In this document: one piece after another, positions 4,380 to 36,654 of the stretch | Layout of the letters: each line of letters begins with the position of its first letter | Numbering within the stretch: the first letter of the stretch is position 1 | The notes under the pieces: generated by a model | Told to the model about the DNA's origin: nothing | Databases searched by the model: none | The model's input: the letters and a program-made list of their open reading frames with translations, nothing else | Source: Somniosus microcephalus | Lineage: Eukaryota | NCBI GenBank assembly: GCA_052327205.1 | Contig: CM126209.1 | Span: forward strand, 45,570,001 to 45,634,000 | Length of the DNA stretch: 64,000 bases | Direction: 5' to 3' | Made by a program: the position numbers and the translations under genes

Positions 4380-4463
4380 GCATTCTTCACTGAAAAATAT
4401 ATGCAGGAACACCCTGAAGACCATGAGAAGATTGAAAAACTCAAGGACCTCATAGCATGGCAG
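4380..4463 (+). CDS. DOCK1: DOCK1 coding exon, [28 protein letters not shown]
   Basis: tattag|GCA acceptor, CAG|gtaaaa donor; 84 bp, in frame with the previous exon; resembles the DOCK1 DHR-2 helix ending KLKDLIAWQ. Too short to appear in the ORF track. Confidence 0.93.
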
Positions 4464-9909: not shown

Positions 9910-10109
9910 TGTGTCAGTACCTTTTTACCTAGACACAATTAGAACTCAGAACTCAGAGATTCAAACATGAAGTGCTTTATTCAGGAAGGAAAGGGGAGTT
10001 CTGGCGAGTTCCGAACAAAGAGAGCTAAACTTAACCAGGAGAACACCCAACCATTTATCTGCTGTGACAGCGCCACCACAGGTGGGAGGAGAACACACAA
10101 TACATAACA
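9910..10109 (-). repeat. 3' LTR of the Gypsy element
   Basis: Preceded on the minus strand by the polypurine tract AAGAGGGGAGGAA (~10112-10124); contains a minus-strand AATAAA. Confidence 0.95.
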
Positions 10110-10265
10110 TATTCCTCCCCTCTTAAATGGAAGGTCCACATTATTCCTCAACAGGTAAGTTACTTTCAATGCACTCAACTAACCTAGGGTAGAGGTAGAC
10201 TGCCTCAACCCCTGACTTTACCCTGGGGTTTATTCTGCCCCAGTCTTGTGGGTAAGTTGCTAAGC

Positions 10266-13200: not shown

Positions 13201-14235
13201 CTCTGATGGCCACAGGTTCGCCGGTATACGTCTTTAGCACAATGTTTGTTGGCTGAAGGGTAAGATGCTTTAGCATTTTGTTGCAGTGTCTGAAACAAGG
13301 GACACAGCCGCGCCTGTGTCCACCTCCACCCGCACTGATTGTCCCTCCACCAGTGGTGACACCCCAGTAAGCCATTTGAACCACCTGCAACCGTCAGTAT
13401 GTGCACCTCTTCCTCCTCAGAGGTGTCGCTCCCCTCTGTTTGCTTGTTCCATCATACTGCACTGAATGAACACTCTTTTTCCTCTCTTGTCCAAATACAG
13501 ACATTTTGCTTCCATGCTTCCCAGCTCTGTCTGCTCTTTTTCTACCTCTACAGGCGCGTTCAATGTGACCCTTTTTGCCACAATTTCGGCATTCCAGCTC
13601 CGTACACCAACAGTCATTAGCGTGATGGCCCGTTTTCCCCACAACGGTAACATGTGCCGTTCCGCGCACCTTTAGGCTTAGACGACACCTTGTGAACTCT
13701 CCCTGTTGAACTCAACTGGTGAGCCTCCTTTTCCGCCATCTCCATGGAGACACTAACTTCAATGGCCTTTTCAAGAGTAAGGTTGTCCTCAGTAAGAAGG
13801 CGCTTCTGTGTGGCTGCATTTTGCAGACCACACACAAGTCTGTCTCTAATGGTGTCATTCAGCACCTCCTTGAACTCGCAGTGTTCTGACAGCCTTTTTA
13901 AAGCAGCAATAAACATCGTCACTGATTCCCCCTCCTCTTGATTCCGTTTGTGAAATCTAAATCTCTCAGCAATAACCAGAGGTTTGTTTTGGTGAAAAAT
14001 GTGCTCCAAGAATTTCCACTAGTTGCTTATATGTTTTAGTTCCTGGCTTATCTGGCTGCACAAGGCTGCGAAGTAAATTGAATGTCTTCGGCCCCATTAC
14101 ACTCAAAAAGGTAGGCACGACCTTTTCGTTTGCCACCACATTCGCCAAGACAAAATAGTCAAAACGTTCCGTATAAGTGCCCCATTGCTCCACATTTTCA
14201 TCAAAATCACCGATGTTTCCTAATATAGTAGCCAT
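10266..14235 (-). pseudogene. Gypsy gag-pol polyprotein pseudogene
   Basis: Pieces in different frames: gag (14235-13617), CCHC knuckle CRNCGKKGHIERAC, protease VDTGAAVS (~13323-13300), RT with YLDD (12644-11955), RNase H and integrase (VHVDFAGP, SDNGPQF, NGQAERFVQT; 11958-10489), C-terminal RYPVRERRPPRRLDL. Confidence 0.93.
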
Positions 14236-14299
14236 CTCACGTTTTAAATTTAAATTTCTGTTTACTCACTGCACCCGTAACGTATGCAGATTCATCCGC

Positions 14300-14311
14300 T
14301 CCTCGTCGCCA
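14300..14311 (-). promoter_or_regulatory. Primer-binding site, probably tRNA-Ser(GCU)
   Basis: Minus strand TGGCGACGAGGA, 6 nt inside the 5' LTR, complementary to the recalled tRNA-Ser(GCU) 3' end ...UCCUCGUCGCCA. Confidence 0.8.
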
Positions 14312-14317
14312 CTTTAT

Positions 14318-14517
14318 TGTGTCGGTACCTTTTTACCTAGACACAATTAGAACTCAGAACTCAGAGATTCAAACATGAAGTGCTTTATTCAGGAAGGAAA
14401 GGAGAGTTCTGGCGAGTTCTGAACAAAGAGAGCTAAACTTAACCAGGAGAACACCCAACTATTTATCTGCTGTGACAGCGCCACCACAGGTGGGAGGAGA
14501 ACACACAATACATAACA
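14318..14517 (-). repeat. 5' LTR of the Gypsy element
   Basis: Direct repeat of 9910-10109 with 4 substitutions by eye; adjacent to the PBS. Confidence 0.95.
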
Positions 14518-15239
14518 ATATACCCATCTATTAGGGAGGTGAATACTGGAAGATATTAATTCTATCTATGCTGGAGGAAGTCAAACCAAACATCATGTCC
14601 TGGGATACAAAAAGCATACCTTTTGGATTATGACCCAATAGAGAGTGCAGTGAAAGGTGCGATTTTGACCTCCGGAATTGCTGTTTGTCATTTGATAAAT
14701 AAACCCATCTTACCCATCATTAGCTACTGTTGGGCAAAGATTTGGCTTGGTTCTATGTTAGCCCATACAGTACTATTCATTGTCCTGAAGCACTTCCTGG
14801 TTTTGATCCAATTTTTGCAATAAGGATTGACCAACTTCATCCATGAGGTGACCATATCAATCTTCACAAACTAGGCTGCTGGTCGTAAAGTAGGTCTTTA
14901 AAGATAGTTTTCAGTTGCTCGCACCTTGAAAATGGATACTGGTCCAATTAGTGAGAAAGGATTAAAATCTATCTATCTTCTTATTTATACATATATAAAA
15001 CAGGATCGTTCTGTCTGTCTGTCTGTCCTGCGGTGTGTCTGTCCGGCTATACACTCTAAAGTTATAGAGCGTACCTACACGTGCATTACATCAAAAGAAA
15101 GCTTACGATTCCGGAACGGTCATAAGCGTATTTACGTTTTGGCGAGACAAAAATTGCCGCGGTATCCAAAAAACGTTCAAAATTCCGCTCATTATCCGCT
15201 CATTAGCATAGAGTCACAGCATAGAGTGATATTAAGGTC

Positions 15240-15440
15240 AACCAATCGTACGGTCGAGCGACCCGATGGTCGACCAATCGCTGCGTGGTGGGGGCGGGTT
15301 CGTCGCGCGTGCGGGCCCTCCTAGAGTCGAGCGACAGGACGATTGACCAATTCTACGCTTCGGTGACAGGACGATTGACCAATCGGTGCGTGTGTGGGCG
15401 GGCCTTATCGTTCTGAACCGAGGTGAGTAGCCGCCATCTT
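15240..15440 (+). promoter_or_regulatory. Promoter-like module: four CCAAT boxes, two GC boxes, splice donor, YY1 motif
   Basis: CCAAT at 15242, 15274, 15347, 15379; GGGGCGGG ~15291 and GGGCGGG ~15396; GAG|GTGAGT at 15423; GCCGCCATCTT 15430-15440. Motif evidence only. Confidence 0.5.
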
Positions 15441-15690
15441 GCTCCCATTCTTTTTCCCGCTTTCTGCGTGTTTCTTTTCAAATCTACATTTCCAGCAAAA
15501 AAAAATTGCTTTTATTAAACTGTTTTTAAAAAAAGTTCATTCATTTGTAAATATATTCTCGAACCTGATGATTCTTTTTCCTACCTTTCCCCGCTTTTGT
15601 AAGGCCTCAAAGCCTAGGCCTCTCCTGCCTAGCCACGCCCGACCTCCCTCACTCTCTCACACACTCTCAGTCAACACCAACCAGATCGCT

Positions 15691-15865
15691 CGCCGCCATC
15701 TTTGATCATGGCAGCACTTCAATGTGGGGAAACAACAGCGCCATATTTGATCCTGGCGGCATGACAAGTTCCTCCTGCCGCCATCTTTGATCATGGCGGC
15801 ACTTCAATGTGGGCCCGAACAGCGCCATCTTTGATCATGGCGGCACTTCAATGTGGGAAACAACA
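15691..15865. repeat. Four tandem palindromic units (G)CCGCCATCTTTGATCATGGCGGC, each containing inverted YY1-like half sites
   Basis: Directly visible; three of the units are followed by ACTTCAATGTGGG. Confidence 0.8.
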
Positions 15866-16039
15866 GTTCCATCTCCAGTCTGGGCTGCCCGGTTTCTTCC
15901 TCCTTCCCTCACACTCTCCTTCCCCCTCCCCTCCCTCCCCCCCTCCTTCCCCCCCTCCTCCCCCCTCCTTCCCCCCTTCCTCCCCCCCTCCCCTTCCTCC
16001 CCTCCTCCTCCCCTTCCTCCCCCCTCCCCTTCCTCCCCC

Positions 16040-19000
16040 TTCCCCCCCCAGTCGCGCTCTCTCTTCCCCGCCAGTCGCGCTCTCTCTTTCCCCCCCCAGT
16101 CGCTCTCTCTCTTCCCCCCCAGTCACGCTCTCTCTTCCCCCCCCAGTCGCTCTCTCTTCCCCCCCAGTCGCTCTCTCTTCCCCCCCAGTCGCTCTCTCTT
16201 CCCCCCCAGTCGCTCTCTCTTCCCCCCCAGTCGCTCTCTCTTCCCCCCCAGTCGCTCTCTCTTCCCCCCCAGTCGCTCTCTCTTCCCCCCCCAGTCGCTC
16301 TCTCTTCCCCCCCCAGTCGCTCTCTCTCTTCCCCCCCCCAGTCGCTCTCTCTCTTCCCCCCCCAGTCGCTCTCTCTCTTCCCCCCCCCAGTCGCTCTCTC
16401 TCTTCCCCCCCCCAGTCGCTCTCTCTCTTCCCCCCCCCAGTCGCTCTCTCTCTTCCCCCCCCCCAGTCGCTCTCTCTCTTCCCCCCCCCAGTCGCTCTCT
16501 CTCTTCCCCCCCCAGTCGCTCTCTCTCTTCCCCCCAGTCGCGCTCTCTCTTCCCCCCAGTCGCGCTCTCTCTTCCCCCCAGTCGCGCTCTCTCTTCCCCC
16601 CAGTCGCGCTCTCTCTTCCCCCAGTCGCGCTCTCTCTTCCCCCCAGTCGCTCTCTCTCTTCCCCCCAGTCGCTCTCTCTCTTCCCCCAGTCGCTCTCTCT
16701 CTTCCCCCAGTCGCTCTCTCTCTTCCCCCCAGTCGCTCTCTCTCTGCCCCCCAGTCGCTCTCCCTCTTCCCCCCAGTCGCTCTCCCTCTTCCCCCCAGTC
16801 GCTCTCCCTCTTCCCCCCAGTCGCTCTCCCTCTTCCCCCCAGTCGCTCTCCCTCTTCCCCCCAGTCGCTCTCCCTCTTCCCCCCAGTCGCTCTCCCTCTT
16901 CCCCCCAGTCGCTCTCCCTCTTCCCCCCAGTCGCTCTCCCTCTTCCCCCCAGTCGCTCTCCCTCTTCCCCCCAGTCGCTCTCCCTCTTCCCCCCAGTCGC
17001 TCTCCCTCTTCCCCCCAGTCGCTCTCCCTCTTCCCCCCAGTCGCTCTCCCTCTTCCCCCCAGTCGCTCTCCCTCTTCCCCCCAGTCGCTCTCCCCTCTTC
17101 CCCCCAGTCGCTCTCTCTCTTCCCCCAGTCGCTCTCTCTCTCTCCCCCCCCAGTCGCTCTCTCTCTCCCCCCCAGTCGCGCTCTCTCTTCCCCCCCCAGT
17201 CGCTCTCTCTTGCCCCCAGTCGCTCTCTCTTGCCCCCAGTCGCTCTCTCTCTTCCGCCCAGTCGCGCTCTCTCTTCTCAGTCGCTCTCTCTCTTCCCCCC
17301 AGTCGCGCTCTCCTCCCCCCAGTCGCGCTCTCCTCCCCCCAGTCGCGCTCTCTTCCCCCCAGTCGCGCTCTCTTCCCCCCAGTCGCGCTCTCTTCCCCCC
17401 AGTCGCGCTCTCTTCCCCCCAGTCGCGCTCTCTTCCCCCCCAGTCGCGCTCTCTTCCCCCCAGTCGCGCTCTCTTCCCCCCAGTCGCGCTCTCTTCCCCC
17501 CAGTCGCGCTCTCTTCCCCCCAGTCGCGCTCTCTTCCCCCCAGTCGCGCTCTCTTCCCCCCAGTCGCGCTCTCTTCCCCCCAGTCGCGCTCTCTTCCCCC
17601 CAGTCGCGCTCTCTTCCCCCCAGTCGCGCTCTCTTCCCCCCAGTCGCGCTCTCTTCCCCCCAGTCGCGCTCTCTTCCCCCCAGTCGCGCTCTCTTCCCCC
17701 CAGTCGCGCTCTCTTCCCCCCCAGTCGCGCTCTCTTCCCCCCAGTCGCGCTCTCTTCCCCCCAGTCGCGCTCTCTTCCCCCCAGTCGCGCTCTCTTCCCC
17801 CCAGTCGCGCTCTCTTCCCCCCAGTCGCGCTCTCTTCCCCCAGTCGCGCTCTCTTCCCCCCAGTTCGCGCTCTCTTCCCCCCAGTCGCGCTCTCTTCCCC
17901 CAGTCGCGCTCTCTTCCCCCCAGTCGCGCTCTCTTCCCCCAGTCGCGCTCTCTTCCCCCCAGTCGCGCTCTCTTCCCCCCAGTCGCGCTCTCTTCCCCCC
18001 AGTCGCGCTCTCTTCCCCCCAGTCGCGCTCTCTTCCCCCCAGTCGCGCTCTCTTCCCCCCAGTCGCGCTCTCTTCCCCCCAGTCGCGCTCTCTTCCCCCA
18101 GTCGCGCTCTCTTCCCCCAGTCGCGCTCTCTTCCCCCCAGTCGCGCTCTCTTCCCCCCAGTCGCGCTCTCTTCCCCCCAGTCGCGCTCTCTTCCCCCCAG
18201 TCGCGCTCTCTTCCCCCCAGTCGCGCTCTCTTCCCCCCAGTCGCGCTCTCTTCCCCCCAGTCGCGCTCTCTCTTCCCCCCAGTCGCGCTCTCTCTTCCCC
18301 CCAGTCGCGCTCTCTCTTCCCCCAGTCGCGCTCTCTCTTCCCCCCAGTCGCGCTCTCTCTTCCCCCAGTCGCGCTCTCTCTTCCCCCCAGTCGCGCTCTC
18401 TCTTCCCCCCAGTCGCGCGCTCTCTTCCCCCAGTCGCGCGCTCTCTTCCCCCCAGTCGCGCTCTCTCTTCCCCCAGTCGCGCTCTCTCTTCCCCCCCAGT
18501 CGCGCTCTCTCTTCCCCCCAGTCGCGCTCTCTCTTCCCCCCAGTCGCGCTCTCTCTTCCCCCCCAGTCGCGCTCTCTCTTCCCCCCAGTCGCGCTCTCTC
18601 TTCCCCCAGTCGCGCTCTCTCTTCCCGCCAGTCGCGCTCTCTCTCTTCCCCCGAGTCGCGCTCTCCCTCTTCCCCCGAGTCGCGCTCTCCCTCTTCCCCC
18701 GAGTCGCGCTCTCCCTCTTCCCCCGAGTCGCGCTCTCCCTCTTCCCCCGAGTCGCGCTCTCCCTCTTCCCCCGAGTCGCGCTCTCCCTCTTCCCCCGAGT
18801 CGCGCTCTCCCTCTTCCCCCGAGTCGCGCTCTCCCTCTTCCCCCGAGTCGCGCTCTCCCTCTTCCCCCCGAGTCGCGCTCTCCCTCTTCCCCCGAGTCGC
18901 GCTCTCCCTCTTCCCCCGAGTCGCGCTCTCCCTCTTCCCCCGAGTCGCGCTCTCCCTCTTCCCCCGAGTCGCGCTCTCCCTCTTCCCCCGAGTCGCGCTC

Positions 19001-19712
19001 TCCCTCTTCCCCCCGAGTCGCGCTCTCCCTCCTCCCCCGAGTCGCGCTCTCCCTCTTCCCCCGAGTCGCGCTCTCCCTCTTCCCCCGAGTCGCGCTCTCC
19101 CTCTTCCCCCGAGTCGCGCTCTCCCTCTTCCCCGAGTCGCGCTCTCCCTCATCCCCCGAGTCGCCCTCTCTCTCTTCCCCCGAGTCGCGCTCTCTCTCTT
19201 CCCCCGAGTCGCGCTCTCTCTCTTCCCCCGAGTCGCGCTCTCTCTCTTCCCCCGAGTCGCGCGCGCTCTCTTCCCCGAGTCGCGCGCTCTCTCTTCCCCC
19301 GAGTCGCGCGCTCCCTCTTCCCCCGAGTCGCGCGCTCCCTCTTCCCCCGAGTCGCGCGCTCCCTCTTCCCCCGAGTCGCGCGCTCCCTCTTCCCCCGAGT
19401 CGCGCGCTCCCTCTTCCCCCGAGTCGCGCGCTCCCTCTTCCCCCGAGTCGCGCGCTCCCTCTTCCCCCGAGTCGCGCGCTCCCTCTTCCCCCGAGTCGCG
19501 CTCCTCTCTCTCCCCCGAGTCGCGCTCTCCCTCTTCCCCCGAGTCGCGCTCTCCCTCTTCCCCCGAGTCGCGCTCTCCCTCTTCCCCCGAGTCGCGCGCT
19601 CCCTCTTCCCCCGAGTCGCGCGCTCCCTCTTCCCCCGAGTCGCGCGCTCTCTCTTCCCCCGAGTCGCGCGCTCTCTCTCTTTCCCCGCCCCCCCGTCCCC
19701 CCCCAGTCGCTC
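16040..19712. repeat. C-rich ~20-23 bp minisatellite, array 1 (C(A/GA)GTCGC(GC)TCTC..TTCCCCCC)
   Basis: Uninterrupted tandem units with blockwise variants; preceded by a pure polypyrimidine stretch at ~15895-16049. Confidence 0.98.
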
Positions 19713-19993
19713 TGTCTTCCAACAACAACATGCCCTCGAAAAAGCCTCAGCACCCGCCGGACACTCCAGCTAGTCTATATATAAAAGCGGTACTTCTGTC
19801 TGTCTGTCCGGCTATACACTCAAAAGTTAAAGAGCGTACCTACATGTGCGTTACATCAAAAGAAAGCTTACGATTCCAGAATGGTCGTAAGTGTATTTAC
19901 GTTTTGGTGAGACAAAAATTGCGGCCGCGGTATCCAAAAAACTTTCAAAATTCCGCTCATTATCTGCTCATTAGCATCGAGTACGTCGAGGTC

Positions 19994-20190
19994 GACCAAT
20001 CGTACGGTCGAGCGACCCGACGGTCGACCAATCGCTGCGTCGCCGGGGCGGGTTCGTCGCGCGTGCCCTCCTAGAGTCGAGTGACAGGACGATTGACCAA
20101 TCCTACGCTTCAGTGACATGACGGTTGACCAATCGGTGCGTGTGTGGGCGGGCCTTATCCTTCTGAACCGAGGTGTGTGGCCGCCATCTT
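19994..20190 (+). promoter_or_regulatory. Second copy of the promoter-like module
   Basis: CCAAT at 19996, 20028, 20097, 20129; GC boxes; GAG|GTGTGT at 20173; GCCGCCATCTT 20180-20190. Confidence 0.5.
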
Positions 20191-20926
20191 GATTCCAAAA
20201 CTGTTCATTTCTTTTTCCCACTTTCTGCGTGTTTCTTTTCAAATCTACATTTAGAGCAAAAAAAAATTGCTTTTATTAAATTGTTTTAAAAAAAGTTAAT
20301 TCATTTGTAAATATTTTCTCTAACCTGATTCTTTTTCCTACCTTTCCCCGTTTTTGTAAGGCCTCAAAGCCTCGCCATCTTCTGCCCAGCCACGCCCGCG
20401 CTAGGTAATTGTCCCACGGCTTGTGGAAAGCTCCTCACCCCCCGCCCCCAGTCTCCCCTGTCACGTTACCCGGGGCAACGGCGTCGGCCGCGAGGGACAC
20501 GGGACATGCACAGGGTGCGCGCGCAGCAGGCGACACACACAAGTCCGAGGCACAGAGCCCGGGAAGCCAGCAGGTGAGATGCGGCGTCTCTCTCCCCCGC
20601 CCGGCGGTTTTGAAGCCGGCTCGGGAGAGCGGGGGGCGGGGCTCGGGGCTCGGGAGTGCGGGGCAGGGCGGCCGGGGCTCAGGAGTGCGGGGCGGGGCGG
20701 CCGGGACTCGGGAGGGCGGGGGCTCGGAAGGCGGGGGAGGGGTTATCCCGCCAACCAGGCCTGGCCGTCTCTCACACCCTCAAGCTGTCTCACGCCTGTT
20801 CCCGGGACTTGGCTCCATTTGCACCCGCGGGCCACTCGCCCTCTCTCTCTCCTTCCCTCTGTGTCTCTCTCTCCTCTCCCCCCCTCCCCTTCTCTCCCCC
20901 CCTCCTCCCCTCCCGCCCTCCCCCGT

Positions 20927-23900
20927 CCCAGTCGCGCGCTCTCTTCCCCCCAAGTCGCGCTCTCTTCCCCCACCCCAGTCGCGCTTTCTCTTCCCCCCAC
21001 AGTCGCGCTCTCTCTTCCCCCCCAGTCGCGCTCTCTCTTCCCCCCCAGTCGCGCTCTCTCTTCCCCCCCAGTCGCGCTCTCTCTTCCCCCCCAGTCGCGC
21101 TCTCTCTTCCCCCCAGTCGCGCTCTCTCTTCCCCCCCAGTCGCGCTCTCTCTTCCCCCCCAGTCGCGCTCTCTCTTCCCCCCCAGTCGCGCTCTCTCTTC
21201 CCCCCAGTCGCGCTCTCTCTCTTCCCCCCCAGTCGCGGCTCTCTCTTCCCCCCCAGTCGCGCTCTCTCTTCCCCCCCAGTCGCGCTCTCTCTTCCCCCCA
21301 GTCGCGCTCTCTCTTCCCCCCCAGTCGCGCTCTCTTCTTCCCCCCCAGTCCGCGCTCTCTCTTCCCCCCCAGTCGCGCTCTCTCTTCCCCCCCAGTCGCG
21401 CTCTCTCTTCCCCCCCAGTCGCGCTCTCTCTTCCCCCCCAGTCGCGCTCTCTCTTCCCCCCCAGTCGCGCTCTCTCTTCCCCCCCAGTCGCGCTCTCTCT
21501 TCCCCCCCAGTCGCGCTCTCTCTTCCCCCCCAGTCGCGCTCTCTCTTCCCCCCCAGTCGCGCTCTCTCTTCCCCCCCAGTCGCGCTCTCCTCTTCCCCCC
21601 CAGTCGCGCTCTCTCTTCCCCCCCAGTCGCGCTCTCTCTTCCCCCCCCAGTCGCGCTCTCTCTTCCCCCCCAGTCGCGCTCTCTCTTCCCCCCAGTCGCG
21701 CTCTCTCTTCCCCCCAGTCGCGCTCTCATCTTCCCCCCCCAGTCGCGCTCTCTCTTCCCCCCCCTAGTCGCGCTCTCTCTTCCCCCCAGTCGCGCTCTCT
21801 CTCTTCCCCCCCAGTCGCGCTCTCTCTTCCCCCCAGTCGCGCTCTCTCTTCCCCCCCAGTCGCGCTCTCTCTTCCCCCCCAGTCGCGCTCTCTCTTCCCC
21901 CCAGTCGCGCTCTCTCTTCCCCCCCAGTCGCGCTCTCCTCTTCCCCCCCAGTCGCGCTCTCTCTTCCCCCCCAGTCGCGCTCTCTCTTCCCCCCAGTCGC
22001 GCTCTCTCTCCCCCCCAGTCGCGCTCTCCTTCCCCCCAGTCGCGCTCTCTTCCCCCCCAGTCGCGCTCTCTTCCCCCCCCAGTCGCGCTCTCTCTTCCCC
22101 CCCAGTCGCGCTCTCTCTTCCCCCCCAGTCGCGCTCTCTCTTCCCCCCCAGTCGCGCTCTCTCTTCCCCCCCAGTCGCGCTCTCTCTTCCCCCCCAGTCG
22201 CGCTCTCTTCGGTTCTCCCCCCCAGTCGCGCTCTCTCTTCCCCCCAGTCGCGCTCTCTCTTCCCCCCCAGTCGCGCTCTCTCTTCCCCCCCAGTCGCGCT
22301 CTCTCTTCCCCCCAGTCGCGCTCTCTCTTCCCCCCCAGTCGCGCTCTCTCTTCCCCCCCCAGTCGCGCTCTCTCTTCCCCCCCAGTCGCGCTCTCTCTTC
22401 CCCCCCAGTCGCGCTCTCTCTTCCCCCCCAGTCGCGCTCTCTCTTCCCCCCCAGTCGCGCTCTCTCTTCCCCCCCAGTCGCGCTCTCTCTTCCCCCCCAG
22501 TCGCGCTCTCTCTTCCCCCCAGTCGCGCTCTCTCTTCCCCCCCAGTCGCGCTCTCTCTTCCCCCCCCAGTCGCGCTCTCTCTTCCCCCCCAGTCGCGCTC
22601 TCTCTTCCCCCCCAGTCGCGCTCTCTCTTCCCCCCCAGTCGCGCTCTCTCTTCCCCCCCCAGTCGCGCTCTCTCTTCCCCCCCAGTCGCGCTCTCTCTTC
22701 CCCCCCAGTCGCGCTCTCTCTTCCCCCCAGTCGCGCTCTCTCTTCCCCCCCAGTCGCGCTCTCTCTTCCCCCCCAGTCGCGCTCTCTCTTCCCCCCCAGT
22801 CGCGCTCTCTCTTCCCCCCCAGTCGCGCTCTCTCTTCCCCCCCAGTCGCGCTCTCTCTTCCCCCCCAGTCGCGCTCTCTCTTCCCCCCAGTCGCGCTCTC
22901 TCTTCCCCCCCCAGTCGCGCTCTCTCTTCCCCCCAGTCGCGCTCTCTCTTCCCCCCCAGTCGCGCTCTCTCTTCCCCCCCAGTCGCGCTCTCTCTTCCCC
23001 CCAGTCGCGCTCTCTCTCCCCCCAGTCGCGCTCTCTCTTCCCCCCCAGTCGCGCTCTCTCTTCCCCCCCAGTCGCGCTCTCTCTTCCCCCCCAGTCGCGC
23101 TCTCTCTTCCCCCCCAGTCGCGCTCTCTCTTCCCCCCAGTCGCGCTCTCTCTTCCCCCCAGTCGCGCTCTCTCTTCCCCCCCAGTCGCGCTCTCTCTTCC
23201 CCCCCAGTCGCGCTCTCTCTTCCCCCCCAGTCGCGCTCTCTCTTCCCCCCAGTCGCGCTCTCTCTTCCCCCCCCAGTCGCGCTCTCTCTTCCCCCCCAGT
23301 CGCGCTCTCTCTTCCCCCCCAGTCGCGCTCTCTCTTCCCCCCCAGTCGCGCTCTCTCTTCCCCCCCAGTCGCGCTCTCTCTTCCCCCCAGTCGCGCTCTC
23401 TCTTCCCCCCCCAGTCGCGCTCTCTCTTCCCCCCCAGTCGCGCTCTCTCTTCCCCCCCAGTCGCGCTCTCTCTTCCCCCCCAGTCGCGCTCTCTCTTCCC
23501 CCCCAGTCGCGCTCTCTCTTCCCCCCCAGTCGCGCTCTCTCTTCCCCCCCAGTCGCGCTCTCTCTTCCCCCCCAGTCGCGCTCTCTCTTCCCCCCAGTCG
23601 CGCTCTCTCTTCCCCCCCAGTCGCGCTCTCTCTTCCCCCCAGTCGCGCTCTCTCTTCCCCCCCAGTCGCGCTCTCTCTTCCCCCCCAGTCGCGCTCTCTC
23701 TTCCCCCCCAGTCGCGCTCTCTCTTCCCCCCCAGTCGCGCTCTCTCTTCCCCCCAGTCGCGCTCTCTCTTCCCCCCCAGTCGCGCGCTCTCTTCCCCCCC
23801 AGTCGCGCGCTCTCTTCCCCCCCAGTCGCGCGCTCTCTTCCCCCCCAGTCGCGCTCTCTCTTCCCCCCCAGTCGCGCTCTCTCTTCCCCCCCAGTCGCGC

Positions 23901-26900
23901 GCTCTCTCTTCCCCCCCAGTCGCGCTCTCTCTTCCCCCCCAGTCGCGCTCTCTCTTCCCCCCCAGTCGCGCTCTCTCTTCCCCCCCAGTCGCGCTCTCTC
24001 TTCCCCCCCAGTCGCGCTCTCTCTTCCCCCCCAGTCGCGCTCTCTCTTCCCCCCCAGTCGCGCTCTCTCTTCCCCCCCAGTCGCGCTCTCTCTTCCCCCC
24101 AGTCGCGCTCTCTCTTCCCCCCCAGTCGCGCTCTCTCTTCCCCCCCAGTCGCGCTCTCTCTTCCCCCCAGTCGCGCTCTCTCTTCCCCCCCAGTCGCGCT
24201 CTCTCTTCCCCCCCAGTCGCGCTCTCTCTTCCCCCCCAGTCGCGCTCTCTCTTCCCCCCCAGTCGCGCTCTCTCTTCCCCCCCAGTCGCGCTCTCTCTTC
24301 CCCCCCCAGTCGCGCTCTCTCTTCCCCCCCAGTCGCGCTCTCTCTTCCCCCCCCAGTTCTTCCAGCGCTCTCTCTTCCCCCCAGTCGCGCTCTCTCTTCC
24401 CCCCCAGTCGCNNNNNNNNNNNNNNNNNNNNNNNNNNNNNNNNNNNNNNNNNNNNNNNNNNNNNNNNNNNNNNNNNNNNNNNNNNNNNNNNNNNNNNNNN
24501 NNNNNNNNNNNNNNNNNNNNNNNNNNNNNNNNNNNNNNNNNNNNNNNNNNNNNNNNNNNNNNNNNNNNNNNNNNNNNNNNNNNNNNNNNNNNNNNNNNNN
24601 NNNNNNNNNNNNNNNNNNNNNNNNNNNNNNNNNNNNNNNNNNNNNNNNNNNNNNNNNNNNNNNNNNNNNNNNNNNNNNNNNNNNNNNNNNNNNNNNNNNN
24701 NNNNNNNNNNNNNNNNNNNNNNNNNNNNNNNNNNNNNNNNNNNNNNNNNNNNNNNNNNNNNNNNNNNNNNNNNNNNNNNNNNNNNNNNNNNNNNNNNNNN
24801 NNNNNNNNNNNNNNNNNNNNNNNNNNNNNNNNNNNNNNNNNNNNNNNNNNNNNNNNNNNNNNNNNNNNNNNNNNNNNNNNNNNNNNNNNNNNNNNNNNNN
24901 NNNNNNNNNNNCTCTCTCTTCCCCCCCAGTCGCGCTCTCTCTTCCCCCCCAGTCGCGCTCTCTCTTCCCCCCCAGTCGCGCTCTCTCTTCCCCCCCAGTC
25001 GCGCTCTCTCTTCCCCCCCAGTCGCGCTCTCTCTTCCCCCCCAGTCGCGCTCTCTCTTCCCCCCCCAGTCGCGCTCTCTCTTCCCCCCCAGTCGCGCTCT
25101 CTCTTCCCCCCCCAGTCGCGCTCTCTCTTCCCCCCCAGTCGCGCTCTCTCTTCCCCCCCAGTCGCGCTCTCTCTTCCCCCCCAGTCGCGCTCTCTCTTCC
25201 CCCCCAGTCGCGCTCTCTCTCTTCCCCCCCAGTCGCGCTCTCTCTTCCCCCCCCAGTCGCGCTCTCTCTTCCCCCCCAGTCGCGCTCTCTCTTCCCCCCC
25301 AGTCGCGCTCTCTCTTCCCCCCCCAGTCGCGCTCTCTCTTCCCCCCCAGTCGCGCTCTCTCTTCCCCCCCAGTCGCGCTCTCTCTTCCCCCCCAGTCGCG
25401 CTCTCTCTTCCCCCCCAGTCGCGCTCTCTCTTCCCCCCCAGTCGCGCTCTCTCTTCCCCCCCAGTCGCGCTCTCTCTTCCCCCCAGTCGCGCTCTCTCTT
25501 CCCCCCCAGTCGCGCTCTCTCTTCCCCCCCAGTCGCGCTCTCTCTTCCCCCCCAGTCGCGCTCTCTCTTCCCCCCCAGTCGCGCTCTCTCTTCCCCCCCA
25601 GTCGCGCTCTCTCTTCCCCCCCAGTCGCGCTCTCTCTTCCCCCCAGTCGCGCTCTCTCTTCCCCCCCCAGTCGCGCTCTCTCTTCCCCCCCAGTCGCGCT
25701 CTCTCTTCCCCCCCAGTCGCGCTCTCTCTTCCCCCCCAGTCGCGCTCTCTCTTCCCCCCAGTCGCGCTCTCTCTTCCCCCCAGTCGCGCTCTCTCTTCCC
25801 CCCAGTCGCGCTCTCTCTTCCCCCCAGTCGCGCTCTCTCTTCCCCCCCAGTCGCGCTCTCTCTTCCCCCCCAGTCGCGCTCTCTCTTCCCCCCCAGTCGC
25901 GCTCTCTCTTCCCCCCCAGTCGCGCTCTCTCTTCCCCCCCAGTCGCGCTCTCTCTTCCCCCCCAGTCGCGCTCTCTCTTCCCCCCCAGTCGCGCTCTCTC
26001 TTCCCCCCCAGTCGCGCTCTCTCTTCCCCCCCAGTCGCGCTCTCTCTTCCCCCCCCAGTCGCGCTCTCTCTTCCCCCCCAGTCGCGCTCTCTCTTCCCCC
26101 CCCAGTCGCGCTCTCTCTTCCCCCCCAGTCGCGCTCTCTCTTCCCCCCCAGTCGCGCTCTCTCTTCCCCCCCAGTCGCGCTCTCTCTTCCCCCCCAGTCG
26201 CGCTCTCTCTTCCCCCCCAGTCGCGCTCTCTCTTCCCCCCAGTCGCGCTCTCTCTTCCCCCCCAGTCGCGCTCTCTCTTCCCCCCAGTCGCGCTCTCTCT
26301 TCCCCCCCAGTCGCGCTCTCTCTTCCCCCCCAGTCGCGCTCTCTCTTCCCCCCCAGTCGCGCTCTCTCTTCCCCCCAGTCGCGCTCTCTCTTCCCCCCAG
26401 TCGCTCTCTCTTCCCCCCCAGTCGCGCTCTCTCTTCCCCCCCAGTCGCGCTCTCTCTTCCCCCCCAGTCGCGCTCTCTCTTCCCCCCAGTCGCGCTCTCT
26501 CTTCCCCCCCAGTCGCGCGCTCTCTCTTCCCCCCCCAGTCGCGCTCTCTCTTCCCCCCCAGTCGCGCTCTCTCTTCCCCCCCAGTCGCGCTCTCTCTTCC
26601 CCCCCAGTCGCGCGCTCTCTCTTCCCCCCCAGTCGCGCGCTCTCTTCCCCCCCAGTCGCGCTCTCTCTTCCCCCCAGTCGCGCTCTCTCTTCCCCCCCAG
26701 TCGCGCGCTCTCTCTCCCCCCCAGTCGCGCTCTCTCTTCCCCCCAGTCGCGCTCTCTCTTCCCCCCCAGTCGCGCTCTCTCTTCCCCCCCAGTCGCGCTC
26801 TCTCTTCCCCCCCAGTCGCGCTCTCTCTTCCCCCCCAGTCGCGCTCTCTCTTCCCCCCAGTCGCGCTCTCTCTTCCCCCCCAGTCGCGCTCTCTCTTCCC

Positions 26901-29900
26901 CCCAGTCGCGCTCTCTCTTCCCCCCCCAGTCGCGCTCTCTCTTCCCCCCCAGTCGCGCTCTCTCTTCCCCCCCAGTCGCGCTCTCTCTCTTCCCCCCCAG
27001 TCGCGCTCTCTCTTCCCCCCCAGTCGCGCTCTCTCTTCCCCCCCAGTCGCGCTCTCTCTTCCCCCCCAGTCGCGCTCTCTCTTCCCCCCCAGTCGCGCTC
27101 TCTCTTCCCCCCCAGTCGCGCTCTCTCTTCCCCCCAGTCGCGCTCTCTCTTCCCCCCCCAGTCGCGCTCTCTCTTCCCCCCCAGTCGCGCTCTCTCTTCC
27201 CCCCCAGTCGCGCTCTCTCTTCCCCCCCAGTCGCGCTCTCTCTTCCCCCCCAGTCGCGCTCTCTCTTCCCCCCCAGTCGCGCTCTCTCTTCCCCCCCAGT
27301 CGCGCTCTCTCTTCCCCCCCAGTCGCGCTCTCTCTTCCCCCCCAGTCGCGCTCTCTCTTCCCCCCCCAGACGCGCTCTCTCTTCCCCCCCAGTCGCGCTC
27401 TCTCTTCCCCCCCCAGTCGCGCTCTCTCTTCCCCCCCAGCCGCGCGCTCTCTTCCCCCCCCAGCCGCGCGCTCTCTTCCCCCCCCAGCCGCGCGCTCTCT
27501 TCCCCCCCAGCCGCGCGCTCTCTTCCCCCCCAGCCGCGCGCTCTCTTCCCCCCCCAGCCGCGCGCTCTCTTCCCCCCCAGCCGCGCGCTCTCTTCCCCCC
27601 CAGCGCGCGCTCTCTTCCCCCCAGCCGCGCGCATCTCTTCCCCCCCAGCCGCGCGCTCTCTTCCCCCCCAGCCGCGCGCTCTCTTCCCCCCCAGCCGCGC
27701 GCTCTCTTCCCCCCCAGCCGCGCGCTCTCTTCCCCCCCCAGCCGCGCGCTCTCTTCCCCCCCAGCCGCGCGCTCTCTTCCCCCCAGCCGCGCGCTCTCTT
27801 CCCCCCCAGCCGCGCGCTCTCTTCCCCCCCAGCCGCGCGCTCTCTTCCCCCCCAGCCGCGCGCTCTCTTCCCCCCCAGCCGCGCGCTCTCTTCCCCCCCA
27901 GCCGCGCGCTCTCTTCCCCCCCAGCCGCGCGCTCTCTTCCCCCCCAGCCGCGCGCTCTCTTCCCCCCAGCCGCGCGCTCTCTTCCCCCCCAGCCGCGCGC
28001 TCTCTCCCCAGCCGCGCGCTCTCTTCCCCCCCAGCCGCGCGCTCTCTTCCCCCCCAGCCGCGCGCTCTCTTCCCCCCAGCCCGCGCGCTCTCTTCCCCCC
28101 AGCCGCGCGCTCTCTTCCCCCCCAGCCGCGCGCTCTCTTCCCCCCCAGCCGCGCGCTCTCTTCCCCCCCAGCCGCGCGCTCTCTTCCCCCCCCAGCCGCG
28201 CGCTCTCTTCCCCCCCAGCCGCGCGCTCTCTTCCCCCCCAGCCGCGCGCTCTCTTCCCCCCCAGCCGCGCGCTCTCTTCCCCCCCAGCCGCGCGCTCTCT
28301 TCCCCCCCAGCCGCGCGCTCTCTTCCCCCCCAGCCGCGCGCTCTCTTCCCCCCCAGCCGCGCGCTCTCTTCCCCCCCAGCCGCGCGCTCTCTTCCCCCCC
28401 AGCCGCGCGCTCTCTTCCCCCCCCAGCCGCGCGCTCTCTTCCCCCCCAGCCGCGCGCTCTCTTCCCCCCCAGCCGCGCGCTCTCTTCCCCCCAGCCGCGC
28501 GCTCTCTTCCCCCCCAGCCGCGCGCTCTCTTCCCCCCCAGCCGCGCGCTCTCTTCCCCCCCCAGCCGCGCGCTCTCTTCCCCCCCAGCCGCGCGCTCTCT
28601 TCCCCCCCAGCCGCGCGCTCTCTTCCCCCCCAGCCGCGCCGCTCTCTTCCCCCCCAGCCGCGCGCTCTCTTCCCCCCAGCCGCGCCGCTCTTCCCCCCCA
28701 GCCGCGCCGCTCTTCCCCCCCAGCCGCGCCCGCTCTTCCCCCCCAGCCGCGCCCGCTCTTCCCCCCCAGCCGCGCCCGCTCTTCCCCCCCAGCCGCGCCG
28801 CTCTTCCCCCCCAGCCGCGCCCGCTCTTCCCCCCCAGCCGCGCCCGCTCTTCCCCCCCAGCCGCGCCCGCTCTTTCCCCCCCCAGCCGCGCCCGCTCTTC
28901 CCCCCCAGCCGCGCCCGCTCTTCCCCCCCAGCCGCGCCCGCTCTTCCCCCCCAGCCGCGCCCGCTCTTCCCCCCCAGCCGCGCCCGCTCTTCCCCCCAGC
29001 CGCGCCCGCTCTTCCCCCCCAGCCGCGCCCGCTCTTCCCCCCCAGCCGCGCCCGCTCTTCCCCCCAGCCGCGCCCGCTCTTCCCCCCCAGCCGCGCCCGC
29101 TCTTCCCCCCCAGCCGCGCCCGCTCTTCCCCCCCAGCCGCGCCCGCTCTTCCCCCCCAGCCGCGCCCGCTCTTCCCCCCCAGCCGCGCCCGCTCTTCCCC
29201 CCCAGCCGCGCCCGCTCTTCCCCCCCAGCCGCGCCCGCTCTTCCCCCCCAGCCGCGCCCGCTCTTCCCCCCCAGCCGCGCCCGCTCTTCCCCCCCAGCCG
29301 CGCCCGCTCTTCCCCCCCAGCCGCGCCCGCTCTTCCCCCCCAGCCGCGCCCGCTCTTCCCCCCCAGCCGCGCCCGCTCTTCCCCCCCAGCCGCGCCCGCT
29401 CTTCCCCCCCAGCCGCGCCCGCTCTTCCCCCCCAGCCGCGCCCGCTCTTCCCCCCCAGCCGCGCCCGCTCTTCCCCCCCAGCCGCGCCCGCTCTTCCCCC
29501 CCAGCCGCGCCCGCTCTTCCCCCCCAGCCGCGCCCGCTCTTCCCCCCAGCCGCGCCCGCTCTTCCCCCCCAGCCGCGCCCGCTCTTCCCCCCCAGCCGCG
29601 CCCGCTCTTCCCCCCCAGCCGCGCCCGCTCTTCCCCCCCAGCCGCGCCCGCTCTTCCCCCCCAGCCGCGCCCGCTCTTCCCCCCCAGCCGCGCCCGCTCT
29701 TCCCCCCCAGCCGCGCCCGCTCTTCCCCCCCAGCCGCGCCCGCTCTTCCCCCCCCAGCCGCGCCCGCTCTTCCCCCCCAGCCGCGCCCGCTCTTCCCCCC
29801 CAGCCGCGCCCGCTCTTCCCCCCCAGCCGCGCCCGCTCTTCCCCCCCCAGCCGCGCCCGCTCTTCCCCCCCAGCCGCGCCCGCTCTTCCCCCCCAGCCGC

Positions 29901-32420
29901 GCCCGCTCTTCCCCCCCAGCCGCGCCCGCCTTCCCCCCCAGCCGCGCCCGCTCTTCCCCCCCAGCCGCGCCCGCTCTTCCCCCCCAGCCGCGCCCGCTCT
30001 TCCCCCCCAGCCGCGCCCGCTCTTCCCCCCCAGCCGCGCCCGCTCTTCCCCCCCAGCCGCGCCCGCTCTTCCCCCCCAGCCGCGCCCGCTCTTCCCCCCC
30101 AGCCGCGCCCGCTCTTCCCCCCCAGCCGCGCCCGCTCTTCCCCCCCAGCCGCGCCCGCTCTTCCCCCCAGCCGCGCCCGCTCTTCCCCCCCAGCCGCGCC
30201 CGCTCTTCCCCCCCAGCCGCGCCCGCTCTTCCCCCCCAGCCGCGCCCGCTCTTCCCCCCCCAGCCGCGCCCGCTCTTCCCCCCCAGCCGCGCCCGCTCTT
30301 CCCCCCCAGCCGCGCCCGCTCTTCCCCCCCAGCCGCGCCCGCTCTTCCCCCCCCAGCCGCGCCCGCTCTTCCCCCCCCAGCCGCGCCCGCTCTTCCCCCC
30401 CCAGCCGCGCCCGCTCTTCCCCCCCCAGCCGCGCCCGCTCTTCCCCCCCAGCCGCGCCCGCTCTTCCCCCCCAGCCGCGCCCGCTCTTCCCCCCCCAGCC
30501 GCGCCCGCTCTTCCCCCCCCAGCCGCGCCCGCTCTTCCCCCCCCAGCCGCGCCCGCTCTTCCCCCCCCAGCCGCGCCCGCTCTTCCCCCCCAGCCGCGCC
30601 CGCTCTTCCCCCCCAGCCGCGCCCGCTCTTCCCCCCCAGCCGCGCCCGCTCTTCCCCCCCAGCCGCGCCCGCTCTTCCCCCCCAGCCGCGCCCGCTCTTC
30701 CCCCCCAGCCGCGCCCGCTCTTCCCCCCCAGCCGCGCCCGCTCTTCCCCCAGCCGCGCCCCTCTTCCCCCCAGCCGCGCCCGCTCTTCCCCCCCAGCCGC
30801 GCCCGCTCTTCCCCCCCCAGCCGCGCCCGCTCTTCCCCCCCAGCCGCGCCCGCTCTTCCCCCCCCAGCCGCGCCCGCTCTTCCCCCCCAGCCGCGCCCGC
30901 TCTTCCCCCCCAGCCGCGCCCGCTCTTCCCCCCCAGCCGCGCCCGCTCTTCCCCCCCAGCCGCGCCCGCTCTTCCCCCCCAGCCGCGCCCGCTCTTCCCC
31001 CCCAGCCGCGCCCGCTCTTCCCCCCCAGCCGCGCCCGCTCTTCCCCCCAGCCGCGCCCGCTCTTCCCCCCCAGCCGCGCCCGCTCTTCCCCCCCAGCCGC
31101 GCCCGCTCTTCCCCCCCAGCCGCGCCCCGCTCTTCCCCCCCAGCCGCGCCCGCTCTTCCCCCCAGCCGCGCCCGCTCTTCCCCCCCAGCCGCGCCCGCTC
31201 TTCCCCCCCAGCCGCGCCCGCTCTTCCCCCCCCAGCCGCGCCCGCTCTTCCCCCCCAGCCGCGCCCGCTCTTCCCCCCCAGCCGCGCCCGCTCTTCCCCC
31301 CCCAGCCGCGCCCGCTCTTCCCCCCCAGCCGCGCCCGCTCTTCCCCCCCAGCCGCGCCCGCTCTTCCCCCCCAGCCGCGCCCGCTCTTCCCCCCCCAGCC
31401 GCGCGCGCTCTTCCCCCCCAGCCGCGCGCGCTCTTCCCCCCCCAGCCGCGCGCGCTCTTCCCCCCCAGCCGCGCGCGCTCTTCCCCCCCAGCCGCGCGCA
31501 GCTCTTCCCCCCCAGCCGCGCGCGCTCTTCCCCCCCCAGCCGCGCGCGCTCTTCCCCCCCAGCCGCGCGCGCTCTTCCCCCCCCAGCCGCGCGCGCTCTT
31601 CCCCCCCCAGCCGCGCGCGCTCTTCCCCCCCCAGCCGCGCGCGCTCTTCCCCCCCCAGCCGCGCGCGCTCTTCCCCCCCAGCCGCGCGCTCTCTTCCCCC
31701 CCAGCCGCGCGCTCTCTTCCCCCCCAGCCGCGCGCTCTCTTCCCCCCCAGCCGCGCGCTCTCTGCCCCCCCAGCCGCGCGCTCTCTGCCCCCCCAGCCGC
31801 GCGCTCTCTGCCCCCCAGCCGCGCGCTCTCTGCCCCCCCAGCCGCGCGCTCTCTGCCCCCCCAGCCGCGCGCTCTCTGCCCCCCCAGCCGCGCGCTCTCT
31901 GCCCCCCCAGCCGCGCGCTCTCTGCCCCCCCAGCCGCGCGCTCTCTGCCCCCCCCAGCCGCGCGCTCTCTGCCCCCCCAGCCGCGCGCTCTCTGCCCCCC
32001 CCAGCCGCGCGCTCTCTGCCCCCCCAGCCGCGCGCTCTCTGCCCCCCCAGCCGCGCGCTCTCTGCCCCCCCAGCCGCGCGCTCTCTGCCCCCCCAGCCGC
32101 GCGCTCTCTGCCCCCCCAGCCGCGCGCTCTCTGCCCCCCCAGCCGCGCGCTCTCTGCCCCCCCAGCCGCGCGCTCTCTGTCCCCCCCCAGCCGCGAGCTC
32201 TCTGCCCCCCCAGCCGCGCGCTCTCTGCCCCCCCAGCCGCGCGCTCTCTGCCCCCCCAGCCGCGCGCTCTCTGCCCCCCCAGCCGCGCGCTCTCTGTCCC
32301 CCCAGCCGCGCGCTCTCTGTCCCCCCAGCCGCGCGCTCTCTGTCCCCCCCAGCCGCGCGCTCTCTGTCCCCACCAGCCGCGCGCTCTCTGGCCCCCCCAG
32401 CCGCGCGCTCTCTGTCCCTC
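20927..32420. repeat. C-rich ~21 bp minisatellite, array 2 (CAG(T/C)CGCGC..CTCT(T/G)CCCCCC), containing a 500-N gap
   Basis: Tandem units throughout; the true length is unknown because of the gap at 24412-24911. Confidence 0.98.
24412..24911. other. Assembly gap (500 N)
   Basis: Run of N inside minisatellite array 2. Confidence 1.
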
Positions 32421-32625
32421 TTCCAACAACAATATGCCCTCAAAAAACCCTCGGCACCGCCGGGCTCTCCAGCTAGCATATATAATATGGATGGAAATAA
32501 TAAAATTAAAATTAAAAGGTGGCTGAAAGAGAATAGAAAAAAGCATAGCAATTAAAAAGCTACGTAAAAGTTTATTATATAAAATTGTATTTTCAGTGTT
32601 TCATTTAGTAGTTAATATTACAGTA

Positions 32626-33267
32626 CAGGTAGACTACCCTTTATCCGGACTTCCGAAAACTGAAACCCTCTAAAAACCGAAGGTTTTTTCGTTCAGCGTA
32701 AGTCGTGTGTACGAACGAAAAAGCCTTCGGTTTTTAGAGGGTTTCGGTTTCGGAAGTTCGAATAAAGGGTAAGTCGTGCGCACGACCCCCCGCCGACCCC
32801 CCCGCGGACCCCGCCGGCCCCGACAACCGCCGACCCCCCCCACCGGCCCCGACAACCGCTGACCCCCGCCAGCCCCGACAACCGCGGACCCCGTCGGCCC
32901 CGACAACCGCCGACCCACCCGCGGACCCCGCCGGCCCCGACAACCGCCGGCCCCGACTACCGCCGATCCCCCCCCCGCCGACCCCCCTGCCGGCCCCAAC
33001 AACCGCCGACCCCGCCGGCCCCGACAACCGCCGACCCCCCCGCCGGCCCCGACAACCGCCGACCCCCCTGCGGACCCCGCCGGCCCCGACCCCCGCCGAC
33101 CCCGACTGACTTACGCTGAGCGTCAGCGTAAGTCCTGCGCACGACACCCCGCCGACCCCCCCCCCCCCCCCGCGGACCCCCGCCGACCCACCTTCCGAAA
33201 TCCGAAATTCTCCTTTATCCGAAACTCGGCTGGTCCCGAGGTTTTCGGATAAAGGATAGTCTACCTG
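32626..33267. mobile_element. Tc1/mariner-pogo (Tigger-like) MITE with internal fold-back and GC-rich tandem repeats
   Basis: TIR CAGGTAGACTACCCTTTATCCG ... CGGATAAAGGATAGTCTACCTG; TA TSD (32624-32625, 33268-33269); CCCCGACAACCGCCGA repeats at ~32785-33190. Confidence 0.88.
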
Positions 33268-33332
33268 TAATACAAAAGCTAAATACTGCAATAACATTTG
33301 TATTAAGTAGCTTTATTACTATAAGTATAGAC

Positions 33333-35409: not shown

Positions 35410-36109
35410 GGGCTAAAAATTCAGTTGGGCGCCATTTGGGGCGCCAAGCTCGCCTGGGCGCCGGAATTACCGCTGCGAGCAGAGCCACTTGCGCCATCCG
35501 GATATTCAGTTTCTGCGCCCCAAATGGAAATGGGCCGCTAAACGAGGCTTCCCGCGCCCCGCTTGGGGCGCTGAAACTGAATTTCGGCGCGTTAAGGGCC
35601 ACAGCGCCACACGCTGCGGCACGGCAGGCTGCGGTACTGCAGGCCTTCCTCCCACTGTTAAGGGGGAGGTACCTGCAACAGCGCGATCCCCGCTCGCGAG
35701 TGCCGGTAAATGAGCCCGGCACCAAGGAGAAGTGCCGGGCTCTCGGGAAACAACCGGCAATGCCGCGGGGGGTGGGGTGTAGGAGGCCGGGGACGGAGTT
35801 GCGGGCAGGCGGGCGCCAAAAAAGCGGCCGGCCGCACCTCCACCTTAACTAGCGCCACTACCGCCACAGGTAGGCCCCTGTGTACCGGTCGCTGTTTGCG
35901 GCCGGCACTGAAGAGGCAGGCGCAACCAAATATGGCCATCGGGGCGCTGCGCACACCGATGACGTCATCGGTGGCGGCGCAGCGCTACAGGCTAACACCG
36001 CCATTAGCGCCCCGCTAAATATCGCGGTAGGTGTGGCCAGTGGCGCAAAAGCCACTGAGTGCCCTCTTTGGGTGCAAACTGGTGGCGCAGGCCACTGAAT
36101 TTCTAGGCC
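35410..36109. mobile_element. GC-rich PIF/Harbinger-type MITE, inverted relative of 761-1476
   Basis: TIR GGGCTAAAAATTCA ... TGAATTTCTAGGCC; 3-bp TSD TCG on both sides; shares the CCGATGACGTCATCGG palindrome with 761-1476. Confidence 0.85.
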
Positions 36110-36654
36110 TCGGGGTTTAGCAGTGATTTGAAGGGGTTCCTAATGTGTGGAAGCACGTGGAGGAGCACTGCAAAAAGGGGTTCTGGGAGCATTAGGGAGC
36201 TACTGGGATGGGGACCCAGTTTTGGGGGCATTGTGAATGGGGGTTCCGATGTCTGCGATTATTAGGCGTAGTCTTGGGCTCAGGAAGCACTGCAAGGGGA
36301 TCTTTAGCATTAGGGAAGGTACAGGGGCCTGGGAGCACTGGGAGGGCAGGCTGGAATTTGTGAGCATAGGAAGGGGGGGATCCTAGGATCAGAGAGTGGA
36401 GGTTGTGGAAGTTTTAGGGTCTAGGAGGATTAGGGAGGGGTCCTGGCACTATTAGGAGAAATGGGATCTGGTAGTATTGGAGTGTAGGCAGGGTCTAGTA
36501 GTGCTAGGGGGCAGGATCTGGCAGCTTTGAGGCAGAAAGAAGGGTTCCAGGAGAATAAGCCCCAAACTGCCTTTGGCCCTTTTCAGACCACCAGACGCCC
36601 TCACATCACAGTCCTGCCTCAGTCATCTCCCCATACCCATTTTTAACACTTTGC

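Follow-up and report, generated by a model that had tools for sequence, protein, structure and literature searches.

A head-to-tail pair of putative non-autonomous Helitron1 units with kilobase minisatellites in a DOCK1 intron of the shark Somniosus microcephalus

The window analysed here is a stretch of 64,000 nucleotides from the shark Somniosus microcephalus (GenBank assembly GCA_052327205.1, contig CM126209.1, positions 45,570,001 to 45,634,000), within which two putative Helitron transposons lie head to tail in an intron of DOCK1. The host gene was recognised by protein matches of three exons, whose translations are consecutive DOCK-family DHR-2 stretches: the exon at 3766-3942 corresponds to DOCK5 residues 1517-1574, the exon at 4380-4463 (28 codons, placed by its AG/GT boundaries and translation) accounts exactly for the 28 residues that separate DOCK5-equivalent positions 1574 and 1603, and the exon at 40541-40678 (46 codons) continues from residue 1603. 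The name DOCK1 comes from the named matches of a more variable downstream exon (120 of the 403 protein matches listed); among the matches listed, the best 3 of 403 were elasmobranch proteins with 91-92% identity, with Callorhinchus at 85% and birds and a lizard at 82-86%. The intron between the last two exons (4464-40540) measures 36,077 bp as assembled and the element pair (14968-32476) 17,509 bp as assembled, or 48.5% of the intron, which agrees with the original prediction that about half of a 36-kb DOCK1 intron is made up of such an element. All of these features are given on the plus strand.

The two units anticipated by the original prediction were real, with boundaries at A|TC (14967/14968), at CTAG|TC (19773/19774) and at the CTAG that ends at 32476. 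Unit 1 (14968-19773; 4,806 bp) begins with TC after a host A, a TA-rich run and (TCTG)4 at 15010-15025 (left terminus 14968-15025), followed by a non-coding head (15025-15641), a cargo (15642-15894), a polypyrimidine tract (15895-16049), a minisatellite of about 166 monomers with a mean length of 22.4 bp (16050-19712) and a right terminus (19715-19773). Unit 2 (19774-32476; 12,703 bp including an assembly gap of 500 N) has the same layout, with TC, a TATA-rich run and (TCTG)3 at 19795-19806 (left terminus 19774-19806), a second copy of the head (19790-20398), a cargo of 72% GC (20399-20835), a polypyrimidine tract (20836-20929), a minisatellite of about 480 assembled monomers with a mean length of 23 bp (20930-32418) and a right terminus (32419-32476). 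The terms 'dimer' and '17.5 kb' describe the pair as assembled, since additional array sequence or further units could be concealed by the gap.

The exact fusion proposed earlier at 19773/19774 was borne out, as CTAG|TC (19770-19775) has no intervening base. The hexamer CTAGTC occurs seven times on the two strands and is therefore not special alone; its significance here lies in the tail homology, which reaches the CTAG, and the head homology, which begins at the TC. The two tails (19715-19773 and 32419-32476) were identical in 52 of 59 columns (88%) and in 25 of the last 30 (83%), a level that places the units in one Helitron family. A TC...ATATATAAAA start was found only at the two unit starts, and the two unit ends were the sole places with ATATATAA 1-3 nt after a CTAG (0.01 expected; 0 of 100 shuffles), both patterns having been defined after the sites were seen. 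The 5' start of unit 1 is ambiguous, since TC also follows A at 14972 and 14976. The shared tail of about 60 bp with a GC hairpin and CTAG that had been described stood as to tail and CTAG but not as to the hairpin, which the units do not have in common. In unit 2 a 6-bp stem including one G-T pair forms a 15-nt hairpin (32450-32464) ending 12 nt before the end of the element (-4.8 kcal/mol, z -1.2), and an equal stem was found at 9 of 1,436 CTRR sites outside the element, none of them CTAG, by a rule set after the fact. In unit 1 the corresponding position (19746-19761) has two mismatched pairs, both G-to-A differences and one of them at a CpG, so that this terminator looks broken.

Neither terminal inverted repeats (TIRs) nor a target-site duplication (TSD) had been expected, and this held: a TSD of at least 2 nt was absent for all four candidate starts, and when the first 50 nt were compared with the last 100, for the units singly and for the pair, the best inverted match was 6-7 nt with at most one mismatch. 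A 9-bp repeat near 14990 and 32477 was considered as a TSD and rejected, as it is mostly also the start of unit 2 itself and the TSD test was negative. Beyond the final CTAG, the 3' flank (32477-32516) is a C followed by a TA run, and with 87.5% AT over 40 nt it falls in the top 0.2% of intron 40-mers; we take it to be the target site.

Self-BLAST aligned the heads over 631 columns at 86.8% identity, and the copies differ by 11 indels and by 41 substitutions among 586 aligned bases (7%), which confirms the sharing of the block predicted there and shortens it from about 650 to about 620 bp. Their observed/expected CpG ratios were 1.35 (copy 1) and 1.40 (copy 2), compared to 0.34-0.42 in introns; neighbouring elements resembling MITEs (short for miniature inverted-repeat transposable elements) also retain CpG (0.93-1.28), so this retention in the heads need not mean function. 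Thirteen of 53 head CpG sites differed by a transition and 33 CpGs were kept in both copies. Each head copy carries what we take to be four CCAAT boxes, and copy 1 also presumed GC boxes and one presumed YY1-like motif. The first ~300 nt of the heads (14968-15321 and 19772-20071) are open in the same frame with 74% amino-acid identity, which is probably chance. Searches with the translated heads gave no match among 54 candidates nor among 1.84 billion representatives, Pfam gave no family for heads and cargo in any of six frames, and Rfam gave no match over 14500-21000 at E values up to 1.

Cargo had been called unit-specific, and alignment of the two gave no score above shuffles (137 of 200 shuffles as high). 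Each contains its own short tandem repeat, of 44 bp in 4.2 copies in unit 1 (15694-15874) and of 29 bp in 3.6 copies in unit 2 (20618-20721), which suggests that, even outside the main array, this family tends to undergo local duplication. The unit 2 cargo also holds a perfect RFX X-box (20465-20479), the sole consensus match in the window (0.12 expected for that spacing), and about 100 bp beyond it a donor-like CAG|GTGAG (20571-20577), both in the sense of DOCK1. These two could act as an internal promoter or a cryptic exon, and by its motifs the cargo may be a captured promoter and first exon; bat and Xenopus Helitrons are described as preferentially capturing 5' gene pieces (PMC4224331, PMC12001565).

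Both units very probably belong to, and work like, Helitron1 elements: TC was found at 14968 (or 14972 or 14976) and at 19774, CTAG at 19773 and 32476, and neither a TSD nor a subterminal inverted repeat (subTIR), in support of the Helitron class first proposed. The non-autonomous status proposed with it was likewise supported, as no RepHel, Pfam or protein match lies in the units. A Helentron or HINE (HLE2) assignment was rejected for lack of a subTIR of 11-18 nt (best 6-7 nt) and of a T|T site (the flanks being A and C), and a MITE or cut-and-paste DNA transposon for lack of TIRs and a TSD; without a TSD and with an inverted match of at most 7 nt, neither definition applies. The published definition of Helitron1 places a palindrome of 16-20 nt about 11 nt from the 3' end (PMC7492417, PMC4067079). 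No third-unit remnant was seen in either flank, where no alignment exceeded shuffles (3' flank against head, 68 of 200 as high). A 21-nt tail motif gave two matches in prokaryotic genomes where some 0.5 would be expected; neither could be lengthened past 24 nt, and both were set aside as chance.

The reading that we favour, for which the case as a whole is about evenly balanced, is that the pair consists of two copies from diverged subfamilies of one non-autonomous Helitron1 (HLE1) family that were stacked at this site and whose arrays then grew in place. A RepHel transposase encoded elsewhere would have nicked at the 5' TC, peeled off one strand, stopped at the hairpin and CTAG and pasted the strand without a TSD, a sequence of steps established for Helraiser (PMC4778049) and assumed here by analogy. 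Unit 2 would have been the earlier arrival, in an AT-rich stretch whose insertion site was either A|C or an A|T with a later T-to-C change. The host A and the TC-TATA-rich start of unit 2 would then have formed a canonical A|T target with an AT-rich 3' side of the kind favoured by Helitrons, and insertion of unit 1 at that A|T would have left CTAG|TC with nothing between. Both units would have brought a short seed of 22-23-bp C-rich monomers between polypyrimidine tract and tail, and the seeds would have expanded at the locus by slippage or unequal exchange to give arrays with private variant domains. The presence of ATATATAA within 3 nt of both CTAG ends is as predicted by a shared target preference. 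Such a double insertion, in which the T and TATA run at the element's own 5' end re-create the target in place of a TSD, is suggested by analogy.

That two events rather than one concatemer gave rise to the pair is in our judgement quite likely. A concatemer should give like monomers, and the units differ in cargo as well as by 7% substitutions and 11 indels; on this point the preference for two separate insertions expressed in the original prediction is supported. Re-insertion at an element's end had also been suggested and stands, although the 5' end of unit 2, an A|T site, suits it better than unit 1's 3' end, which would be G|T. Had unit 2 been inserted behind unit 1, it would have required such a G|T site; insertion of unit 1 in front of a unit 2 already in place is favoured, and unit 1 is somewhat the likelier of the two to be the later insertion.

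The arrays, of 3.7 kb in unit 1 and at least 11 kb in unit 2, are built from monomers of 22.4 bp and 23.2-23.3 bp on average, which corrects the earlier figure of about 21 bp. The monomers are 70-80% GC, CpG-rich and have about 80% pyrimidines on one strand, with G-runs about 14-16 nt apart on the minus strand; the centroid structure was unpaired in both stretches folded (2/2), giving no sign of stable secondary structure. Open frames of kilobases run over the arrays because the monomer has no stop codons. We counted nine successive variant domains in array 1 and five in array 2, a domain being a run of at least four identical cores with shorter runs omitted. The domains are contiguous, each is 1-3 edits from the one before and most are private to one unit. 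Only one CpG-to-CpA change was seen in about 1,530 array CpGs, against the transitions at 13 of 53 sites in the heads, so the arrays are much younger, or more homogenised, than the split of the heads. A low-complexity landmark, CCCGCCC..CCGTCCC, lies after array 1 and before array 2, a placement that hints, as a suggestion from sequence, at separate expansions from different short seed monomers. We consider that most of the array length was probably gained in place.

An alternative is that the family, still Helitron1, carried the multi-kilobase arrays in ready-made, which we regard as unlikely. The same monomer does occupy the same place in both units, with 20 copies of the main variant of array 2 also in array 1, and minisatellites borne by Helitrons have been published for C. 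elegans, Xenopus and oyster. The near absence of CpG decay may equally be left by a recent insertion of ready-made arrays, because the divergence of the heads may predate insertion. Most variant domains, however, belong to a single array, the landmark follows one array but precedes the other, and published carried arrays are far shorter in monomer number (at most 29 monomers in oyster and 2-7 in Xenopus; PMC7492417, PMC12001565), with mobility modelled to fall with array length (PMC7492417, PMC4067079). The idea that the element moves and seeds kilobase minisatellites is thus plausible as to seeding, while as to moving the private domains and the CpG evidence lean towards growth in place.

The broken terminator of unit 1 also allows a composite move by read-through, in which the dimer formed elsewhere and was transferred after a nick at the left end of unit 1, read-through and a stop at the intact hairpin of unit 2, or by way of a heterodimeric circle. 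Loss of the hairpin raises read-through in Helraiser (PMC4778049), and composite transposition using the ends of two copies has been described in bats (PMC4224331). This history would still require a prior event that joined two diverged units, the G-to-A changes in the stem of unit 1 could be decay after insertion and no second copy of the junction is known; we find it doubtful.

We give little credence to a single rolling-circle concatemer or local tandem duplication whose monomers diverged in place. The exact CTAG|TC is also the junction of Helraiser circles (PMC4778049), rolling-circle tandem arrays have been reported in plants and bats and the ATATATAA after the last CTAG could be the trace of a third start. 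Against this, the unrelated cargo would have had to be replaced in place, the combination of 7% substitution and 33 CpGs retained by both heads is unlike long neutral decay and the 3' flank lacks a further match to the head.

The gap, assembled as 500 N (24412-24911), lies inside array 2, and unit 2 could be an assembly chimera or the gap could hide further units, in which case the termini would be real and the size and the term 'dimer' wrong. To the left of the gap there are 17 isolated length variants and no substitutions in 149 monomers; these variants are probably uncorrected long-read errors, so fine detail on this side is unreliable. The same variant dominates on both sides (94 of 149 monomers on the left, 73 of 108 on the right), and a duplicated overlap across the gap was not supported (the longest run in common was 13, a value that 28 of 200 shuffles attained). 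As the flanking DOCK1 exons are consecutive across the gap, both of its sides belong to DOCK1, which does not show what the gap contains. We judge a chimera or further hidden units to be improbable. A second gap in the window (198 N at 53240-53437, within 53050-53630) also falls in a C/T-rich repeat, with a different monomer, so that both gaps of the window lie in polypyrimidine arrays.

Least probable is that the pair is not Helitron1 at all and is instead a Helentron or HINE (HLE2), a MITE, or the product of local duplication whose terminal motifs arose by chance. In favour of this, the layout of microsatellite and central repeat resembles DINE-1 and HINE (PMC7492417, PMC4067079), the hairpins are weak and terminal signals alone are published to yield many false positives. 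Against it, there is no 11-18-nt subTIR, T|T site or TSD and the units have TC at both starts and CTAG at both ends.

Several observations weigh against the favoured reading of two stacked Helitron1 copies with arrays grown in place. The energy of the unit 2 hairpin is not significant, with 22 of 200 shuffles folding equally well, and unit 1 has no qualifying stem (z +0.5), a broken stem being poorly suited to the more recent mover. Because the base after the last CTAG is C, the outer site of the pair is A|C; the A|T insertion site expected earlier thus fails for the outer pair and is found for unit 1, between the host A and the first T of unit 2. On the other side, Helraiser, which prefers A|T with an AT-rich 3' flank, had 46 of 1,751 insertions at non-AT sites, chiefly TT, AC and AA (PMC4778049), which makes AC a known minor target. 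Loss of head CpGs (9 against 4, p = 0.27) favours an older unit 2 weakly and is not significant as a dating. Self-BLAST with the arrays masked gave no further copies in the 64-kb window beyond the two units, and no autonomous partner, empty site or second locus was found in the window or by protein searches with the translated heads, the latter being weak evidence on other copies because the heads are non-coding. Clean arrays, as noted, suit ready-made insertion too, and the middle of array 2 is concealed by the gap.

Of the known systems, the pair is most readily compared by description with Helraiser and HelibatN (Helitron1/HLE1; PMC4778049, PMC4224331), with which it has in common the 5' TC, the 3' CTAG, a hairpin about 11-12 nt from the end (12 nt in unit 2, 11 nt in Helraiser; PMC4778049), the lack of a TSD, an AT-rich 3' flank, an exact CTAG|TC junction and promoter-like 5' cargo. 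The shark hairpin differs in being shorter (15 against 19 nt) and broken in unit 1, and the shark pair in its outer A|C and multi-kilobase minisatellites. In C. elegans Helitron1, HelitronY1 and HelitronY1A an internal minisatellite likewise keeps evolving after insertion into a host gene (bioRxiv 10.64898/2026.08.08.743475); there a 35-bp monomer is remodelled towards a 10-bp periodic signal, whereas the shark monomer is 22-23 bp, GC- and CpG-rich and strand-skewed. Heli1Xen1 and Heli2Xen of Xenopus are vertebrate Helitrons with tandem arrays, internal minisatellites and 5' gene-fragment capture, but the carrier of the minisatellite there is Helitron2, with 2-7 repeats of a 166-bp monomer (PMC12001565), while the shark units have HLE1 termini and 166 and about 480 monomers. 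HINE/DINE-1 elements and oyster Cg_HINE have a similar order of left flank, microsatellite, central tandem array and right flank with stem-loop, and differ in their subTIRs, T-rich sites and at most 29 monomers of 140-180 bp (PMC7492417, PMC4067079). The double-insertion dimers of transposable elements described by McGurk and Barbash (2018; PMC5932611) resemble the pair in that a first insertion re-creates the target and leads to a head-to-tail dimer; there the TSD re-creates it, the shark pair has none, and Helitrons are nowhere named in that paper. Non-autonomous insect Hel-2 elements have a 5' (CTGT)n tract, which the (TCTG)n close to the 5' end of each shark unit resembles. For plants and bats, Helitrons joined head to tail and arranged in tandem arrays have been reported, partly by way of a review's account of Xiong et al.

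Helitron tandems, internal minisatellites and promoter capture are thus already published; what is new here is the size of the arrays (up to about 480 monomers) and the host lineage. The consulted portions of the open literature searched, which leaves out most subscription journals, describe no elasmobranch Helitron1 at family level, and the family may already carry a name. If the favoured reading is true, it adds a Helitron1 family to the elasmobranch lineage and shows that one site of insertion is enough for a vertebrate intron to double in length, by way of arrays likely to be annotated as plain satellite. A testable rule also follows from it, that an element lacking a TSD can form dimers when the target is supplied by the element's 5' end. 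The known mechanism of Helitrons is unchanged by it. We propose that the element is selfish DNA that has doubled the DOCK1 intron. A far broader and rather improbable extension is that an elasmobranch Helitron1 family with a target-mimicking 5' end stacks head to tail without TSDs and that stacks exceeding 10 kb can move because their internal terminators are broken. Such a family would bring into introns both captured promoter motifs (CCAAT boxes, RFX X-box, splice donor) and minisatellites that are CpG-rich and strand-skewed, and in sharks and rays it would be a driver of long introns and of gaps in genome assemblies.

Other elements lie in the same window. A young LTR (long terminal repeat) retrotransposon on the minus strand (9910-14517), in the same intron, ends 450 bp before unit 1; its LTRs are 98% identical over 203 columns, it has an apparent 4-bp ATAT TSD, and reverse transcriptase, RNase H and integrase follow in Gypsy-type order in a pol split over three frames. 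A TA-flanked MITE-like element (32624-33269), 147 bp after the Helitron pair, is bounded by inverted ends of 24 nt (96%) and contains a further inverted repeat of 54 nt as well as a GC-rich minisatellite of its own (32790-33190), making it a second non-autonomous element with an internal minisatellite. Two further copies of another inverted-repeat-rich element (6162-6900 and 7890-8760) lie in this intron and are diverged, with 74-79% identity in patches. At 761-1477 and 35410-36110 there are GC- and CpG-rich elements of about 700 bp with short inverted ends, in opposite orientation and 76% identical over 552 columns, which may belong to PIF/Harbinger. An element of about 1.6 kb at 61173-62750 has related inverted ends and, by eye, a decayed transposase-like stretch near 61700-61980.

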